Shown here piece after piece: positions 4,678 to 32,423 of a stretch of DNA of 64,000 nucleotides (position 1 is the first letter of the stretch; every line of letters starts with the position of its first letter). Below the pieces are notes generated by a model that worked only from the letters and a program-made list of their open reading frames with translations, did not search any database and had not been told where the DNA came from. The DNA comes from an uncultured Bacilli bacterium (GTDB lineage: Bacteria; Bacillota_I; Bacilli_A; RF39; UBA660): contig CAJUCD010000002.1 of the NCBI GenBank assembly GCA_910585045.1, positions 73,829 to 137,828 on the forward strand. The letters are read 5' to 3'. Position numbers and translations under genes: made by a program.

Positions 4678-5464
4678 TATATTATTGTTAGTAAATAATT
4701 TAGATATTGTGAAAGATTTAAAAGAAGAAAGTAATATTACTTTCCTTTTTCCTGTTAGTGAGTTTAGTGTGGGATTTGAAAGAACTTTTAGGGTTGAAGA
4801 GATTCCAGAAGGTTTTATTTTTGTAAATAGAATATTAGATAATGAGGGAATTGAAAAATTTAAGAAATTTATAGGAGCTTTACCTTCTAATATTAAAGGA
4901 ATAGTTTTTGATGATGTAGGCGTTTTAAATGTTTTATTAAAAGTTAATCTTAATATTACAAAAATATTATTTTTAAATCATTTAAATTGCAATTATGAAA
5001 GTGTTAATGCTTATTTAGATTTTGTTGATAGTGTAGTAGTGAGTACAGATATTACTATCGAAGAAATTGATGAGATTTTAAAGAAAGCTAAGAAACCAGT
5101 AGTTTTGTATACTTTCGGTCATATTAATATTATGTATTCTAGAAGAACACTTTTAACAAATTATAATAATCATTTTAAAAAGGATGTTCCAACTATAGCA
5201 GATTTGACAGAAAAAATTAGTGGAAAAAAATTTAAAGCTCAAGAGAGCATTTATGGGACAGTTATATATACAAATGAACCTTTTAATGGTCTAGAATTAC
5301 GAAATAGAGAAAATGTTTTGTTTAATTTAATAAATATGACTTTTTTTACCAATGAGAAAATGCTAGAGATAATTAAGAGTGATAGTAATTTAGAAGATAA
5401 ATATCCCTATAAGTATTTGAGTGCTGAAAAAACAATTGTTAAAATTAGTGATATTAAAGATTAA
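4664..5464 (+). CDS. Peptidase U32 family protein, YrrN-like partner subunit.
   Basis: Position and size match B. subtilis yrrN. It overlaps trmR by 14 nt. Confidence 0.5.
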   Translation: MKKNNILLLVNNLDIVKDLKEESNITFLFPVSEFSVGFERTFRVEEIPEGFIFVNRILDNEGIEKFKKFIGALPSNIKGIVFDDVGVLNVLLKVNLNITKILFLNHLNCNYESVNAYLDFVDSVVVSTDITIEEIDEILKKAKKPVVLYTFGHINIMYSRRTLLTNYNNHFKKDVPTIADLTEKISGKKFKAQESIYGTVIYTNEPFNGLELRNRENVLFNLINMTFFTNEKMLEIIKSDSNLEDKYPYKYLSAEKTIVKISDIKD

Positions 5465-5508: not shown

Positions 5509-6696
5509 ATGATAGAATTACTAGCACCAGCAGGTAATTTAGATAGACTTAAAATAGCTTATCTTTATGGAGCTGATGCCACATATATTGGAGGATATAA
5601 TTATTCTTTGAGAGCTAATGCAATTAATTTTAGTGCAGAAGAATTAAAAGAAGCAGTAGAGTTTGCACATAGCTTAAATAAAAAAGTTTATGTAACAGTA
5701 AATATTGTACTACATAATAGTGATTTGGCAGGTTTAAAAGAGTATTTATTAGAATTAGAAAGTATAGGGGTTGATGCTGTAATAGTAAGTGATATTGCAG
5801 TTATTAATGTAATTAAAAATAATAATATTAATTTAGAAGTACATGTTTCAACACAAGCTAGTACCTTAAACTATGAGGCAGCTTTATTTTATAAATCATT
5901 AGGAGCTAAAAGAGTGGTTTTGGCAAGAGAGGCTACTAAAGATGATATAAAGATAATCAAAGATAAAACAGGTCTTGATTTGGAATGCTTTATTCAGGGG
6001 GCTATGTGTACTAGTTTTAGTGGGAAATGTGTATTATCAAATGTTGCAACTAATAGAGATTCTAATCGTGGTGGTTGTGCACAAATATGTCGATGGACTT
6101 TTGATATAAATAATGAAAATAATGTATTTAGTATGACACCTAAAGACCTTAATATGGCAGTATATCTAAAACAAATGATGGATATTGGAGTTAATTCTTT
6201 TAAAGTAGAAGGTAGAATGCGTTCGGTTTATTATATAGCAACTGTAATTTATGAATATCGTAATTTGTTTGATAAAATAAAAAGTAATACTTTAACTGAA
6301 AATGACATATTATATTCTAATGATGTCATTAATAGATGTGCTAATAGGGAAAGTGTACCACAATTCTTTGATGGGCAACCAACAGAAAAAGAGCAATATT
6401 ATTTAGGGAGAGATGAAGTTTCTAATCAAGATTTCTTAGGAATAGTATTGGATTCTTTAGAAGATAAGATTTTAATTGAGGAACGTAATTATTTTAAAGT
6501 TGGAGATGAAGTGGAATTTTTTGGGCCAGGAATTGAAACTTTTTCTTATAAGATTGGGGAAATTTTGGATGAGAAGATGGAGTGTATTGAAGTTGCAAGA
6601 CATCCTAGAATGCATGTTTATTTACGACATGATAAGAAACTTCCAAAGGGTACTATGATGCGATTAAAAGTATTTGACAAAAAGATGTATTTGTAG
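5509..6696 (+). CDS. Peptidase U32 family protein, YrrO/PrtC-like (tRNA U34 hydroxylation-associated).
   Basis: ELLAPAGNLDRLKIAYLYGADA is the U32 N-terminal signature. GGAGG sits 5 nt upstream of the ATG at 5509. The ORF-track start at 5497 is a TTG. Confidence 0.8.
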   Translation: MIELLAPAGNLDRLKIAYLYGADATYIGGYNYSLRANAINFSAEELKEAVEFAHSLNKKVYVTVNIVLHNSDLAGLKEYLLELESIGVDAVIVSDIAVINVIKNNNINLEVHVSTQASTLNYEAALFYKSLGAKRVVLAREATKDDIKIIKDKTGLDLECFIQGAMCTSFSGKCVLSNVATNRDSNRGGCAQICRWTFDINNENNVFSMTPKDLNMAVYLKQMMDIGVNSFKVEGRMRSVYYIATVIYEYRNLFDKIKSNTLTENDILYSNDVINRCANRESVPQFFDGQPTEKEQYYLGRDEVSNQDFLGIVLDSLEDKILIEERNYFKVGDEVEFFGPGIETFSYKIGEILDEKMECIEVARHPRMHVYLRHDKKLPKGTMMRLKVFDKKMYL

Positions 6697-22517: not shown

Positions 22518-23804
22518 ATGTTAGAATATAAACTAATTTTATTTAAAAAGGGGCGAATAAAATTGGAAAAAAGAGTGTTTTTAAAACGGGTAGAGGATAT
22601 TTTAAATACTAAAGATTGGTCGGGCATTGCTAAGAGTTATATTAAGGGAGCAGCTAAATTTGTCTATGAAAATTATGCACCACATGATTATTATAAAGTT
22701 TCAATTTTTAATTATTTAGAAAGATTTCTCTATATTTTAAATAATATGAAGGACTTTAAAGTTGTAGAGTTTGCAGATTTTGGTTTAGAAGTTGAATATA
22801 TGGATTATTTTAGGTCGCAAGTTAGGGTAGCAAATGGAAATGATGGTACTTTAGATATTGTAGATGGTCAATTTGTACCTGCGGTTAGAGGTCGTTATAG
22901 TTGTCCATTGTCTGGTTATGCTGACTTAAATAAAAGAAACGTTTATTTATTAAGTGAAAGTGATAAAGTTTTTCGTCATTTAAATATTGTACATGAACTT
23001 ACACATTTAGATGATGGTAAATATTCATTTCCAGTTGGTAAATTACCTTTTGGAGCAGATTTTAGAAAAATGTGTATAGAAGGTAAAGCAGTTTTTCATG
23101 AAACTTTATTTGGCACTCAAATAGAAGATGGAGCATGGTGTGATAATATTAATGATGAAAAACACCATTTACAAATATATTCTGATTCGTGTTCTTACCC
23201 TTTATATGAAATTTTGTATAAATTATTGATTTTGATTTTCGGGGTAGAGACAATTGAGAAAATGTCTAAAAATACAGATGCAGGACTTAATATGATTGAA
23301 ACTTTAAAAGCAATGTATCCAAATCTTCCAGTTTATGAAATATATGCTCACTTTGTTTATATTTTAGCTATGTTTGATGATAACTCTAAATCATTTATTA
23401 AAAATACTATTAATATTTTTAGAAAATCACAGTATAGTTTATTTTCGCAAGAACAAGCTAATTATAAAAATTATATCCGTGCTTTGAGAGAGTTACATAG
23501 AAATATTATGCAAGCTCAAGATAAAGCTTCATATAATGAATTTAAGAAAATATTTATATTTGCTTTAAAAGAAACTCAAGCATCAAAAGAGAAAATGCTA
23601 GCATTAAAGGATGAGAGTTTAACTTATGCTTTGATGGATATATGTGTTAAAAATGGTGATTTGATAGCATCTTTTGACTTTTTAATAAATGTTGCTAATA
23701 TGGTTATCTTTAGTAGCAAAACAGTTGATGAATCTATGGCTAAAGAGTTAGGTAATATAAGAAATACTTTAATTGAAGCAAGAGAATTAGGTAATATTAG
23801 ATAA
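22518..23804 (+). CDS. Hypothetical 428-aa protein with an HExxH motif (possible zinc-metallopeptidase-like fold).
   Basis: NIVHELTHLDDG, with a downstream Glu candidate in FHETLFG. No clear RBS, so the start is uncertain. Confidence 0.4.
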   Translation: MLEYKLILFKKGRIKLEKRVFLKRVEDILNTKDWSGIAKSYIKGAAKFVYENYAPHDYYKVSIFNYLERFLYILNNMKDFKVVEFADFGLEVEYMDYFRSQVRVANGNDGTLDIVDGQFVPAVRGRYSCPLSGYADLNKRNVYLLSESDKVFRHLNIVHELTHLDDGKYSFPVGKLPFGADFRKMCIEGKAVFHETLFGTQIEDGAWCDNINDEKHHLQIYSDSCSYPLYEILYKLLILIFGVETIEKMSKNTDAGLNMIETLKAMYPNLPVYEIYAHFVYILAMFDDNSKSFIKNTINIFRKSQYSLFSQEQANYKNYIRALRELHRNIMQAQDKASYNEFKKIFIFALKETQASKEKMLALKDESLTYALMDICVKNGDLIASFDFLINVANMVIFSSKTVDESMAKELGNIRNTLIEARELGNIR

Positions 23805-23852
23805 GAAGTATTAGAGAGCTTCTTTTTTTAATTTAAAAATATTTGTTTTTAT

Positions 23853-23882
23853 TGACTTTTAGCTTCGGGGGGGGGGTATAAT
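23853..23882 (+). promoter_or_regulatory. Near-consensus sigma-A promoter TTGACT-N18-TATAAT. The spacer contains a G10 homopolymer, making it a candidate phase-variable promoter.
   Basis: TTGACT at 23853-23858. G10 at 23867-23876. TATAAT at 23877-23882. Flanking inverted repeat AGCTTC / GAAGCT. Confidence 0.55.
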
Positions 23883-23918
23883 GAAGCTAGTGATTATAAC
23901 AAAAGGAGTAAGAGGTTT

Positions 23919-26042
23919 ATGGTGTTTAAGTGTAAAATGTGTGGTGGTGATATTACCCCTAAACAAGGAACAAATATAGGAATATGTAGTTATTGTAAAA
24001 GTACCATGACTTTGCCTAATTTAGAAGATGAGAAAATAGTAAATTTATATAATAGAGCTAATGATTTAAGACTAGCTAATAGGTTTGATGAAGCAAAAGA
24101 AATATATGAAAAGATTTTATTAATTAATAATGCTGAAATAGAAGCTCATTGGGGAATATTACTTTGTAGATACGGGATTGAGTATGTAGATGATCCTAAT
24201 ACTAATAAGAAAATTCCAACTTGTCATAGAACTATTGATAGTTCAATTTTGGTAGATGCAGATTTTAAATTTATAAAAAAGGAAGCTTATGGTGAAGTTT
24301 TAGAATTATATAAAAATGAAGCTAAAGTTATTGATGAAATTCAAAATGGTATATTATCTATTTCAAAAAAGGAAAAGCCTTATGATGTATTTATATGTTA
24401 TAAAGAGACTGATGAGGCAGGAGAAAGAACTAAAGATTCAGTTATAGCAGAAGATATTTATGATAAATTAGTTCTACAAGGCTTAAAAGTATTTTTTGCA
24501 AGAATTACTTTAGAAAGTAAATTAGGAATGGAATATGAACCTTATATTTATTCAGCTTTAAAGTCAGCTAAAGTAATGTTAGTGGTTGGAACAAAGGAAG
24601 AACATTTTAATGCTGTTTGGGTAAAAAATGAATGGTTAAGATTCTTAGAAATGATGAAAACCAATAAAGAAAAACATTTGATTCCTGTTTATAGTGGTAT
24701 TGATGCTTATAAATTACCAGAAGAATTTGCTATGTTACAAGCTCAAAATATGGATAAAATAGGAGCGATGCAAGATATAGTAAGAGGAATAAAAAAGATT
24801 TTAGATGAATATAAAGATGATTCAGAATATGAGGAAATAAATAAAGAAACTATTGAAAAAGTGGCGGCGGCTATAGGTGATGCCAGAAGTTTAGGAAATG
24901 GTTCTTATGAAGTAACTGTAGTAAAAGAGAGACTTCCTGTATGGTATTACTTGTTAATTAGTGCGACATTTGTTTTTGGTTTTTTCTTTTCATTAATGCT
25001 ATTAAGTAATGAAGTATTTTATCATTTGGTAACAAAAGAAAGCTATAGTGTTATCGACTTAATAAGATATGTTACTGGTAATGGGTTACTAATATTGTGG
25101 GGAATGTTTGTTTTGTTCATGATAATAAGTTTACTTTGTTTTATTATAAATCGTAAAACATTTAAGTTGAGAAAATACTTTTTAATAACAGGGCTATTAA
25201 TTTTTTTAGAGTTTAATATGTTACCTATAAAATATGGTTATATGCCATTTAGATTTCCTTTTGTTTTAAATATTAGAGATTTAGATGGAGTCTTCTTTTT
25301 CTATTTTATATTTGTAACTTTGTTTTTATTATTGTGGTTTATAAAGCCAACTTGGCAAATTAATACTAGTGGAAAAACTTTGATGAATGAAGAAGAAAAA
25401 AATAAACAATTGGCTAAAAATCAAGAAATTAAAAATAATTTTAGTAGAAAAGATGATTCTAAAGTAAATAAAAAATTTCTACTAGGGATATTTTTAACAT
25501 TAGTTGTTTTATTCTTTATTAATATTTATACATCACTAGCAGCTTGTAAAGGTACTAATAAGGATGATACTATAGATCAAGTAGAAATAATGGTAAGCAA
25601 AGAAATGACTAAGTTACCAGGCAGTAAATATTATAATGGACAGGTAAAAAAAGGGGAATTTTATAATTTAATAAATGTAGTTGTTAAAGATAATAAGATG
25701 TATCTAGGAATCAAAAATAAGGCGGGAATTTTTGGTTATATAAATAGAGCTAGTGTGAATATTAATTGTGTTTCTGATAAATGTTTGCAAATGTTTAAAC
25801 AAACAAATGATAGAAATCCAGAAGTAAAACAGCTAATAGTAACAACTGAATATATAAATATTCGTGCTAGTTCATATGCATCTAGTGTCAACTTGGGAAG
25901 GGTTTATAAAGATGAAATATATACTATTTTAGATAAAGCTGGTTATCAAGAAATTTGGTATAAAATAAAAACATCAAATGGAATAGAAGGATGGATTGCA
26001 GGCAGTTTTAATAAAGAAAAAATGGTAGATATTTTAGATTAG
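23919..26042 (+). CDS. Transmembrane TIR-domain protein. It has an N-terminal zinc ribbon, a TPR-like region, a TIR domain, 5 TM helices and C-terminal extracellular SH3b domain(s).
   Basis: CKMCGG...CSYCKS; KPYDVFICYKETD...KVFFARI...VMLVVGT...WVKNEWLRFLE (TIR pattern); the SH3b segment YINIRASS...GWIAGSF. Confidence 0.7.
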   Translation: MVFKCKMCGGDITPKQGTNIGICSYCKSTMTLPNLEDEKIVNLYNRANDLRLANRFDEAKEIYEKILLINNAEIEAHWGILLCRYGIEYVDDPNTNKKIPTCHRTIDSSILVDADFKFIKKEAYGEVLELYKNEAKVIDEIQNGILSISKKEKPYDVFICYKETDEAGERTKDSVIAEDIYDKLVLQGLKVFFARITLESKLGMEYEPYIYSALKSAKVMLVVGTKEEHFNAVWVKNEWLRFLEMMKTNKEKHLIPVYSGIDAYKLPEEFAMLQAQNMDKIGAMQDIVRGIKKILDEYKDDSEYEEINKETIEKVAAAIGDARSLGNGSYEVTVVKERLPVWYYLLISATFVFGFFFSLMLLSNEVFYHLVTKESYSVIDLIRYVTGNGLLILWGMFVLFMIISLLCFIINRKTFKLRKYFLITGLLIFLEFNMLPIKYGYMPFRFPFVLNIRDLDGVFFFYFIFVTLFLLLWFIKPTWQINTSGKTLMNEEEKNKQLAKNQEIKNNFSRKDDSKVNKKFLLGIFLTLVVLFFINIYTSLAACKGTNKDDTIDQVEIMVSKEMTKLPGSKYYNGQVKKGEFYNLINVVVKDNKMYLGIKNKAGIFGYINRASVNINCVSDKCLQMFKQTNDRNPEVKQLIVTTEYINIRASSYASSVNLGRVYKDEIYTILDKAGYQEIWYKIKTSNGIEGWIAGSFNKEKMVDILD

Positions 26043-26058: not shown

Positions 26059-27126
26059 ATGGCATTATTTGAAGTAATAAAAAAAGCAAAAGATGATAAA
26101 AATATTGTTTGGCGATATCCGAAACAGAATTTTAATACAGGATCAAAGTTAATTGTTAATGAGTCAGAAGAAGCGCTGTTCTTTTCTTGTGGTGAAGCCT
26201 TAGATTTATTTGGGCCTGGTAGATATACATTAAATACTAATAATATTCCTTTATTAAGAAGATTATTAGATATTCCAACAGGTGGAAAAACTTCTTTTAC
26301 AAGTGAAGTGTATTTTATTGATAAAACTGTTAGGCAAACAAAATGGGGAACATCATCAAAATTAGAGTTTTTGGAACCAATCTATAAATTTCCTATACAA
26401 ATTGGAGCATGTGGAGAAATACGTTTTGAAATTGAAGATTCTCGAAAATTGTTAGTAAAGCTAGTAGGCATTAAACGAAATTTTGATATTAATAATATAG
26501 ATGATTTTTTTGCTAATCAAATACTTGTGAAGGTTAAAGCTTATTTGACGGGAATAATTAAAGAAGAAAAAATAAGTATTTTTGAGATTGATGAAAAATT
26601 AGATAAAATAAGTAGAGAATTAAAAGAATTATTAAAAAATGATTTTCAAGAATTTGGCATTAAAATAGATAATTTCTTTTTAAGTAATATTGCAAAGCCT
26701 GAAGATGATAAACAATATCTAAAATTTAAAGAGTTATACTTTAAAAAAGGAGTTTTAATTGCAGATGTACAATTAGATAAAGAAATATCAGATATTGAAG
26801 CAGAAAAAGAGGCTAGTAGAATAGGAATTACGGCAAAAGGTATAGCTACAAAAAGAAAAACAGAAGGTTATTCTTATCAAGAGGAAAAAAGCTTGGAGAT
26901 TGGTAAGGAAGTGGCTAGAAATGAAGCAATGGGACAATTTACTAATATTGGAGTTGGTCTGGGTGTAATGAGTGGTACTTCAAATGTTTTAGGAAGTGAA
27001 GTTACAAAACAGGTTCAAGGAGCTTTTATGAATTTGAATGAAAAATTTTGTTCTTATTGTGGACAGAAACTTAATAATGAAGCACTATTTTGTTTTAAGT
27101 GTGGAAAGAAGGTAAGTGATGAGTAA
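26059..27126 (+). CDS. SPFH/band-7 domain protein with a C-terminal zinc ribbon (COG4260, virion-core-protein-like family; same family as B. subtilis YdjI).
   Basis: The N-terminus MALFEVIKKAKD...IVWRYP...FGPGRYTLNTNNIPLL is typical of COG4260. C-terminal zinc ribbon CSYCGQKL...CFKCGKK. Confidence 0.65.
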   Translation: MALFEVIKKAKDDKNIVWRYPKQNFNTGSKLIVNESEEALFFSCGEALDLFGPGRYTLNTNNIPLLRRLLDIPTGGKTSFTSEVYFIDKTVRQTKWGTSSKLEFLEPIYKFPIQIGACGEIRFEIEDSRKLLVKLVGIKRNFDINNIDDFFANQILVKVKAYLTGIIKEEKISIFEIDEKLDKISRELKELLKNDFQEFGIKIDNFFLSNIAKPEDDKQYLKFKELYFKKGVLIADVQLDKEISDIEAEKEASRIGITAKGIATKRKTEGYSYQEEKSLEIGKEVARNEAMGQFTNIGVGLGVMSGTSNVLGSEVTKQVQGAFMNLNEKFCSYCGQKLNNEALFCFKCGKKVSDE

Positions 27127-28360
27127 GAGTACTAAGATTATATTGTTAGTTGGGGTGTTGTCTTTTATTGTTTTTTTAGTAGTAGCATATTTTCATTATC
27201 AAGGTAGTTCAGATATAGTATTTTTGACCTCAAAAGATTCTTATGCAGATAATTATGCTAAAAAGCATTTTTTGGATGTTGAATATGTTTCTAATATGGA
27301 AAAGAATAAGTATCAAAGAAAATTAGAAAATTTTGATTATAAAATTGATAAGGGAATTACTATTACAGGTTATAAAGGTAAAAGTTCAAGATTAGTAGTG
27401 CCAGCTGTTATTAGGGGCATAAAAGTTTTAGAAATAGAGGCAGATATATTAAATAATAAAAATATTGAAACATTAGTATTATCTAGTAATATAGAAAAAA
27501 TAGATAAAGAAAAATTTAAGAGTGTTAATATTGAATGTTTTGCTAATTCTTTTTGTTTAGAGTTAAAAGAAACAGATGGCATGAATGTAACAATTTTAGA
27601 TGATTCAGAATTTGTAGATTTTAATAATTATTTAGATGAATATGCTTATGAGTTAAATGATGGCCAAGTAGAAATTATAAGGTATGATGGTCAAGATTCT
27701 TATCCAATAATTCCTAATACTATCAATGGTTATCAAGTTAAAACTATAACTTTTGCGGCTAATAATATTAAAGGTATATATATTCCTGATACAGTAGATT
27801 ATATAGGAAATAACTTTATTATGAAGCATTTAAATAGAACGTATTTAACGGTGGTTTTAGGTAATTTAGGGGCTTTGATAATATTTGTAGTTGTAAATAT
27901 ATTTAATAAGAGTAAAAAATTAGAAGAGATAAGCGCTAATTCAATTATTAGTATTATAAGTATAATATATTTAGGAATTATTTATTATTTTTCTTATAAT
28001 ATAAATATATTTTTAGACTATAAATGGTATATTATAAAGACATTAATCGGAACATTTATTTATATTTTACTCATAGTTTCTCTTTATTTAGGATTAAGTA
28101 ATAGAAAGAAATATACTAGTAGTATTAAATATAAAAAAGAGTTTTTAAATGAAACATTAAATTTGTTAGATGATGTTGATTCAAATGATGAATATAATTT
28201 AAGAGAGTTAATTAGATATTCAGAACCAATATCTACTGACCAAGTAAAAGATATAGAATATAAAATCCTAGAATTAATTACAAATATAAGTAAAGATAAT
28301 GTAGAGGAAATAAAAAAGCTTATTAAGAAAAGAAATAATGTTTTAAAGCAAAATAAATAA
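27116..28360 (+). CDS. Membrane protein with an extracytoplasmic BspA-type leucine-rich repeat region, 3-4 further TM helices and a C-terminal coiled-coil tail.
   Basis: BspA-LRR-like spacing: ITITGYKGKSSRLVVPAVIRGIKVLEIEADIL...IIPNTINGYQVKTITFAANNIKGIYIPDTVDYIGNNFI. Overlaps the SPFH gene by 11 nt. Confidence 0.5.
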   Translation: MMSKSTKIILLVGVLSFIVFLVVAYFHYQGSSDIVFLTSKDSYADNYAKKHFLDVEYVSNMEKNKYQRKLENFDYKIDKGITITGYKGKSSRLVVPAVIRGIKVLEIEADILNNKNIETLVLSSNIEKIDKEKFKSVNIECFANSFCLELKETDGMNVTILDDSEFVDFNNYLDEYAYELNDGQVEIIRYDGQDSYPIIPNTINGYQVKTITFAANNIKGIYIPDTVDYIGNNFIMKHLNRTYLTVVLGNLGALIIFVVVNIFNKSKKLEEISANSIISIISIIYLGIIYYFSYNINIFLDYKWYIIKTLIGTFIYILLIVSLYLGLSNRKKYTSSIKYKKEFLNETLNLLDDVDSNDEYNLRELIRYSEPISTDQVKDIEYKILELITNISKDNVEEIKKLIKKRNNVLKQNK

Positions 28361-28409: not shown

Positions 28410-28438
28410 TTGACAAGTGCTAAGCATAATATTATAAT
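28410..28438 (+). promoter_or_regulatory. Consensus sigma-A promoter of the hrcA operon (TTGACA-N17-TATAAT).
   Basis: Exact -35 and -10 hexamers with a 17-nt spacer. Confidence 0.7.

Positions 28439-30040: not shown

Positions 30041-30054
<14 letters not shown>
29491..30054 (+). CDS. grpE: Nucleotide exchange factor GrpE.
   Basis: GrpE coiled-coil and the C-terminal beta-domain motif MRPAMV. Confidence 0.85.

Positions 30055-32423
<2,369 letters not shown>

Follow-up and report, generated by a model that had tools for sequence, protein, structure and literature searches.

The stretch of DNA analysed here (the window, 64 kb) belongs to an uncultured bacterium of the Bacilli that is represented by metagenome assemblies alone; it has a GC content of 27.1% and a strong G>C skew. 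It carries three co-directional genes, encoding a TIR membrane protein, an SPFH protein and a further membrane protein, directly downstream of a promoter in which ten consecutive G residues run up to the -10 hexamer (Table 1). The 707-aa product of the first gene begins with a CxxC zinc-ribbon-like and TPR-like region, followed by a TIR_2 domain at residues 157-274; about four hydrophobic segments lie between 339 and 544, and an SH3_3 domain (646-697) closes the C-terminus. A W-x-x-N-E motif in the TIR domain can be aligned to WCLNEL in the TIR of plant SNC1, a motif that contains the catalytic Glu of plant TIR NADases, and from this sequence enzymatic competence of the protein is plausible. 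The gene for the 414-aa membrane protein is probably the third gene of the operon. Two other species share the arrangement: a sister species, whose TIR protein is 66% identical and whose three genes stand in the same order behind different upstream genes, and a species represented by the mouse-gut catalogue MAG MGBC143456 (species B), whose TIR protein is 46% identical. The TIR-SPFH synteny is kept in both, and both have a gene for a protein of ~415-419 aa at the position of the third gene.

Immediately upstream of the promoter lies a gene for a 428-aa protein with no family match (22518-23804, + strand). A weak hairpin plus T7 is all that follows this gene, and transcription read-through from it could bypass the tract promoter. 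In the sister species this gene is absent from that position, which is taken up by genes for a superoxide dismutase and a CdiA_C-like protein, so that the left flank of the promoter varies between species. In one strain of the window species (L091, positions 100-1386; SRR15730553) the 428-aa gene is split by substitution, with no indel, into ORFs of 194 and 180 aa, and may be a pseudogene there. Downstream of the operon, a perfect TTGACA-17-TATAAT promoter precedes hrcA, grpE, a 182-aa ORF and dnaK. This ORF (30041-30589, + strand) has no Pfam match and overlaps both of its neighbors; an insertion at this place within the hrcA-grpE-dnaK operon is unusual.

An earlier note on this DNA had suggested a sensor or defence role for the operon, and such a role is not established. 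The PADLOC models gave, within the TIR domain, a single marginal match (candidate system PDC-S66, E = 2.6e-4) and none for the three other proteins compared with them, so that the operon has no significant match in this curated set of defence systems. A search of solved structures returned no match covering the whole TIR protein.

Table 1. Positions of the promoter elements and operon genes in the window.
Feature	Position	Strand	Remark
-35 hexamer TTGACT	23852..23857	+	5/6 match to TTGACA
Promoter spacer, 19 nt (tttagcttc + G10)	23858..23876	+	
Inverted-repeat left arm TAGCTTC	23860..23866	+	brackets G10 and TATAAT
G10 homopolymer	23867..23876	+	hypermutable; doubles in other samples as the place where an integrative conjugative element joins
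-10 hexamer TATAAT	23877..23882	+	6/6 match; abuts the G run
Inverted-repeat right arm GAAGCTA	23883..23889	+	
Ribosome-binding site AAGGAG	23903..23908	+	10 nt before the ATG; read from sequence
Gene 1, 707-aa TIR membrane protein	23919..26042	+	
Gene 2, 355-aa SPFH/Band_7_1 protein with C-terminal zinc ribbon	26059..27126	+	16 nt after the TIR gene
Gene 3, 414-aa membrane protein	27116..28360	+	11-nt overlap with the SPFH gene; no family match

The promoter and its G run

The two hexamers together match a sigma-A-type promoter at 11 of 12 positions, in agreement with the earlier note, which had described a near-consensus promoter ahead of the TIR ORF. The ATG of the TIR gene lies 36 nt past the -10 hexamer with the ribosome-binding site in between, and transcription is predicted to start at ~23889-23890, given the usual distance of ~7 nt after a -10. 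The homopolymer occupies the spacer, as it does in promoters of the slipped-strand class.

The geometry of this promoter differs from the one first described. The earlier note had placed the G run and TATAAT correctly; its -35 hexamer (at 23853-58) has to be moved one base to the left, its spacer of 18 nt is in reality 19 nt, and two losses of G are needed to reach 17 nt, where one had been thought sufficient. Since the spacer measures 19 nt and not 18, the common allele is predicted to be weak or OFF, and for the same reason a promoter scan limited to spacers of 16-18 nt left the site unreported. The perfect (12/12) promoters on the + strand of the window, including that of hrcA (28410-28438), all have spacers of 17 nt, which indicates that the organism follows the usual sigma-A geometry.

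The view that the G run is highly non-random held up well. It is the sole G or C homopolymer longer than 5 within the 64 kb, where ~0.002 runs of ten or more G are expected per window from base or first-order composition. In ~990 kb of fetched loci, every G or C run of at least 7 was a TIR-promoter tract, a mobile-element junction or a single C7. Around the tract an Rfam search found no RNA family, and a check of the window for simple sequence repeats gave no other repeat of interest.

Tract length among strains and species

The window species is absent from the genome and metagenome contig collections, where a DNA scan for GACTTTTAGCTTC-N0-25-TATAATGAAGC gave 0 matches, and variation was therefore sampled by exact-protein look-ups that yielded independent assemblies from ENA, NCBI, JGI and Logan, each representing one consensus per sample. 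At sites free of the mobile element described below (empty sites), the ~20 independent assemblies of the window species had G10 in 17-18 cases; L093 and L111 carried G9 and L001 carried G11, and the flanks were identical throughout. When 19 assemblies were aligned over 5.1 kb, indels were found at the tract only, and the seven A7/T7 runs of the same alignment were constant in length. The closest comparisons are the clearest: over 5124 nt, L110 matches L111 without a mismatch, the sole difference being one G of the tract, and L001 has 0 substitutions relative to the window, yet carries G11. The tract is by far the most changeable site of the locus.

The comparison with related assemblies that the earlier note had proposed extends this to other species, with G9-G11 in the window species, G10-G12 in species B and G10 or G11 in the sister species. 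The promoter of species B reads TTGACA-aaaatgctc-G10-TATAAT (L017/L139), so that 9 nt plus G10 again make 19 nt. Its ten independent assemblies comprise seven with G10, two with G11 and one with G12; these strains are 0-6 substitutions apart, and tract indels are the sole ones in 6.2 kb, with the exception of strain L137. In the sister species the promoter reads TTGACA-aaatcgttc-G11-A-G4-TATAAT in one sample and has G10-A-G4 in another (L098, positions 2925-2970, and L099), and the two contigs show 0 mismatches in 4250 nt. The resulting spacer of 24-25 nt, as predicted from its length, cannot work with these hexamers; the sister-species tract appears over-expanded and interrupted, and may possibly be a switch locked OFF. 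In all three lineages, tract length thus differs between close strains whose flanks are identical.

The exceptional strain of species B (L137, ERZ28621172, ~6440-6476) is without exactly 31 bp, from TTGACA through TATAAT, with TT microhomology at the end points. Apart from this gap and a 9-bp insertion in the SPFH gene, 4 substitutions in 6.2 kb set the strain apart from its relatives. Given so few substitutions and the microhomology, a recent deletion of the 31-bp core promoter is the likeliest explanation from sequence, and it is less likely that the core promoter was inserted as a 'cassette' in the other strains.

The variation in length should be interpreted with some caution. Poly-G is a known trouble spot of Illumina chemistry, and some of the consensus sequences may contain a homopolymer miscall specific to G runs; the A7/A8 controls are shorter and of other composition. 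Four contigs (L005, L115, L116, L117) end at the tract or within ~15 nt of it; such breaks fit length heterogeneity, short of proof, and they would also be expected if the run were an artefact, be it spurious poly-G produced by two-colour sequencing or a chimera made during assembly, a possibility that the earlier note had already named. We consider an artefact highly improbable and reject it on the grounds of recurrence: the same tract and flanks occur in more than 20 independent assemblies of the window species, and tracts with unique, identical flanks in more than 30 independent assemblies from four repositories, several assemblers and three lineages.

A second reading accepts the G run as real and gives it a fixed place in the promoter, either structural, such as a rigid G·C block, or regulatory, such as part of an operator defined by the flanking inverted repeat; differences of one base would then be neutral noise or technical error and play no part in switching. 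G10 is indeed the majority allele in both the window species and species B, and no 17-nt allele (G8) was seen at empty sites among ~30 assemblies, where the spacers of the two species measure 18, 19, 20 and 21 nt. The inverted repeat that the earlier note had reported around the tract is real as well, with arms of 7 bp and a 16-nt loop enclosing G10 and TATAAT. Repeats of this kind begin at about 0.3% of window positions; the present one is thus mildly unusual, but it was picked out post hoc. It may be a conserved operator, being partly retained in the sister species as an imperfect repeat of different bases (TCGTTC...GAA-A-CGA); however, it is absent in species B. Moreover, a long homopolymer is an inherently unstable choice for a fixed part, and the variation is concentrated there in three lineages, including contigs with zero mismatches. 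A spacer of 19 nt, or 24-25 nt in the sister species, would also be a poor fixed design for sigma-A in an organism whose consensus promoters in the window use 17. Taken together, we find a fixed part improbable, and favor a tract that varies by slippage.

The layout of a -35, 9 nt, a G run and a -10 recurs in the window species, the sister species and species B. Comparators without the tract were homologues of at most 58% identity obtained by protein searches of the genome and metagenome contig collections; their 33 loci, with ~19 distinct upstream regions, have ordinary AT-rich sequence in its place. In the tree of the TIR protein, the clade of the window and sister species is parted from species B by such tract-less lineages, and CAG:914, the closest relative of species B in this tree, has no tract. 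The layout has consequently been gained twice or lost many times.

An integrative conjugative element at the tract

The earlier note missed that the tract is also an element junction. In one sample of the window species (L090 = L124), and in at least five of species B (among them L100/L122, L102, L105 and L106), foreign DNA ending in ...ttttgggtatatccttaattct has taken the place of all host sequence left of the G run. G8 or G9 follows, and then the host TATAAT and gene, both unchanged. Occupied and empty alleles are thus both present, and a recombinase gene lies at the element end beside the junction, as is expected of an attB site. The recovered part of the element (positions 1-6050 of L090/L124 in the window species, 1-9977 of L122 in species B) has the gene for a 663-aa large serine recombinase as its last one on the right and also encodes a sortase and a VirD4/TraG-type coupling protein, a combination that identifies the foreign DNA as an integrative conjugative element. 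The recombinase gene ends 42 nt before the G run, and its product has Resolvase, zinc-ribbon and DUF4368 domains in precomputed Pfam annotation, the DUF4368 match being faint or weak. Over the last 1465 nt the elements of the window species and species B are 99.1% identical, which points to recent movement between the two species. A variant element occupies the same site in one species B assembly (L107).

A recombinase 100% identical to this one was found beside at least 8 other host flanks (L125, L126, L127, L128, L129, L130, L131, L133). Here the junctions lie ~45 nt after the recombinase stop and always consist of ...ccttaattct, a run of G4-G11 and host DNA that often starts with a -10-like sequence (tataat, tattat, ttaaat). 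The flanked host genes include a pseudopilin (N_methyl) cluster and a gene for a 410-aa protein with a signal-peptide-like N-terminus. One enzyme of this architecture therefore occurs at more than three unrelated target sites, the mark of a multi-targeting recombinase, and DUF4368 recombinases have been described as a 'multi-targeting' clade (PMC10083194). We considered whether TATAAT could be part of the element end, and rejected this because the host sequence beyond the G run is not the same from site to site; conversely, ccttaattct was rejected as host DNA, being identical in 10 different contexts. Two junctions (L126 and L127) have only G4 and G6, which suggests that the element probably supplies at most ~4 G to the run.

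A related element, with an 87%-identical recombinase (P0141; L144-L153, ~5020-5080), ends in ...TTGACAct followed by G8-10. In at least six flanks its TTGACA lies 18-20 nt upstream of a host TATAAT, and genes for membrane-anchored proteins (MKLEKYVDK...) follow downstream. From its sequence, such a junction resembles a hybrid promoter, part element and part host, whose spacer contains a G run of variable length. The element inserted at the TIR promoter is of the P0135 type; it displaces the host -35 and provides none of its own, so that insertion should silence the TIR promoter unless transcription reads through from the gene of the recombinase.

Of the two junctions, the right one alone was recovered. 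For definition of the left one, the host sequences to the left of the G run are TTGACTTTTAGCTTC-Gn or TTGACAAAAATGCTC-Gn; look-ups of the left-flanking host proteins (428 aa and 400 aa) gave empty sites only, and scans of viral contigs for element ends, aimed at the left junction or a circular joint, gave 0 matches. The plasmid collection contained only relatives of at most 33% identity. A second, different serine-recombinase element is present in some strains of species B (L120/L123/L136/L141; ~2800-4600 in L136) just upstream of the TIR locus, between serS and an AAA_14/DUF4143 gene, where a 592-aa recombinase gene adjoins a gene for a 2160-aa SNF2-type helicase.

From these observations it could be hypothesized that the tract exists mainly because of mobile elements, as the attB crossover core for one family of integrative conjugative elements whose 'multi-targeting' large serine recombinase is TndX-like and of the DUF4368 type. 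The run would then have been chosen as a look-alike of the G-run joint of the element, or introduced or homogenised by element traffic, and any effect on expression of the TIR operon would be a by-product. That the same element replaces the left side in two species, that its conjugation genes, sortase and recombinase reach up to the run, that an identical recombinase joins G runs at other flanks, and that variant and related elements do likewise is in line with this hypothesis. So are the relationship of the recombinase to TndX (28% identity to the annotated protein), its DUF4368 assignment, and the separation of the tract-bearing clades in the TIR tree.

Several points speak against it. Serine recombination is conservative and leaves no footprint. 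At empty sites the tract is G10-G12, and the left arm beside it is host-specific, with a different sequence in each species. This arm accompanies the TIR operon even though the upstream genes of the window and sister species are not the same. Moreover, the G4 and G6 junctions suggest that most of a G8-G11 junction would be host-derived. A role as attB is in any case compatible with slippage, which is seen at empty sites too. We therefore regard it as unlikely, if worth keeping in mind, that recombination is what the tract is mainly for, and return to slippage in a promoter spacer as the preferred reading.

Discussion

Our results favor the hypothesis that the tract is a slippage-prone, contingency-type homopolymer in a sigma-A promoter spacer which probably sets transcription of the TIR operon. 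The tract is hypermutable and its layout is conserved; the effect of its length on expression we infer from promoter rules and from the precedents in Neisseria and Mycoplasma. By position and by polymorphism between strains, it would fall in the classical promoter-spacer class of slipped-strand loci, with ON/OFF expression as a predicted property. According to this hypothesis, each slippage event in replication would lengthen or shorten the stretch between the two hexamers by a single base, giving spacers of 17 nt for G8, 18 for G9, 19 for G10, 20 for G11 and 21 for G12, and the change in spacing would grade or switch operon transcription. G10, with its 19 nt, is the prevailing allele and would be a weak or OFF setting, and rare cells with G9 or G8 would express the operon. 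Loss of the promoter occurs in nature, through element insertion and through the 31-bp deletion, which suggests that low or absent expression is tolerated.

Some observations add complexity to that hypothesis. The window species and species B together have four longer alleles (G11/G12) and two shorter ones (G9); longer alleles are thus at least as frequent as shorter ones, which is the pattern that neutral slippage would give, and tract length may follow a neutral random walk. The same mode (G10, 19 nt) in two unrelated species is also odd for a freely toggling switch. Of the phase-variable ON/OFF switch proposed in the earlier note, the variation in length therefore stands and is strengthened by recurrence of the layout in three lineages; against it are the 19-nt spacer and the missing 17-nt allele, and the ON/OFF behavior is unproven.

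We also put forward, tentatively, the broader idea that conjugative elements of low-GC gut Bacilli use hypermutable poly-G promoter spacers as attachment sites. If so, elements carrying a G run at their right end, some of them with a perfect outward-facing -35, would swap promoter halves on integration. This would create hybrid, still slippage-prone promoters for TIR operons, for secreted or membrane-anchored proteins and for a pseudopilin cluster. A host contingency switch and an element att site would then be one sequence, and tract length could jointly control expression of host genes and the integration and excision of the element.

Phase variation through homopolymers in promoter spacers is textbook knowledge in a few pathogens (Neisseria, Haemophilus, Mycoplasma, Campylobacter). 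Full-text literature queries that did not name a TIR operon found no poly-G promoter phase variation for uncultured low-GC gut bacteria or for a TIR-domain operon, and no recombinase targeting a poly-G run; a further query on TIR plus SPFH operons matched general TIR defence papers only. What is most unusual about the locus is that a contingency tract is at the same time the junction of an element with a multi-targeting serine recombinase. Should the switch prove functional, a TIR membrane module that potentially consumes NAD would come under stochastic control, and the cost of such a module would explain a setting that is mostly OFF. Public metagenome assemblies alone would then suffice to expose contingency loci, and hypermutable sequence would be tied to mobile-element targeting, the same G run being the junction in two distant species. 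The link between tract and element is of interest for site choice by serine recombinases and for genome-engineering tools.

Relation to known systems

The TIR protein resembles the Thoeris ThsB-type anti-phage proteins in its TIR_2 domain and W-x-x-N-E motif. It differs from them in being membrane-embedded with an SH3b domain and in having no ThsA-like partner, and, unlike TIR anti-phage systems, the locus stands beside hrcA-grpE-dnaK with no recognisable defence island.

On the side of the element, the nearest described recombinases are of the TndX/TnpX type (Tn5397, Tn4451; DUF4368 clade, PMC10083194), which share DUF4368, the position at the element end and the use of many host sites. However, the recombinase found here is a distant relative by its identity to TndX, and the core described for that type is a GA or TT dinucleotide within an AT-rich motif. 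Every junction found here has a run of 4-11 G instead. The P0141-type ends recall the outward-facing -35 sequences with which insertion sequences form hybrid promoters, as they present a perfect TTGACA at 18-20 nt from a host TATAAT; here the carrier is a conjugative serine-recombinase element, the spacer contains a variable G run and the function is putative. The P0135-type element at the TIR promoter, which has no -35 at its end, is unlike that kind of hybrid promoter.

Among contingency loci, the poly-A spacer tracts of the Mycoplasma hyorhinis vlp genes control ON/OFF expression. They resemble the present tract as promoter-spacer homopolymers in a low-GC, Gram-positive-derived lineage, but are composed of A, precede surface lipoprotein genes and have no sequence relationship to it. 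Campylobacter jejuni has isolated runs of G8-G13 in a genome of ~30% GC that is otherwise without G runs. The isolated poly-G in an AT-rich genome and the differences of one base between clones are alike; the Campylobacter tracts are mostly coding and act by frameshift, whereas the present one is intergenic and would act, if at all, on promoter geometry.

The locus also has a predicted functional parallel in porA, opc and fetA of Neisseria meningitidis, where gain or loss of one base alters the spacing of the hexamers and hence the level of transcription. There too a poly-G/C tract lies between the -35 and the -10 and varies between otherwise identical isolates. The present locus differs in that its host belongs to an uncultured low-GC lineage of the Bacilli, and the genes controlled would be those for TIR, SPFH and membrane proteins instead of an outer-membrane antigen. 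Its common allele of 19 nt is outside the functional range, no optimal allele was observed, and switching is a prediction. Finally, in contrast to the Neisseria tracts, the tract described here doubles as the junction of a mobile element.
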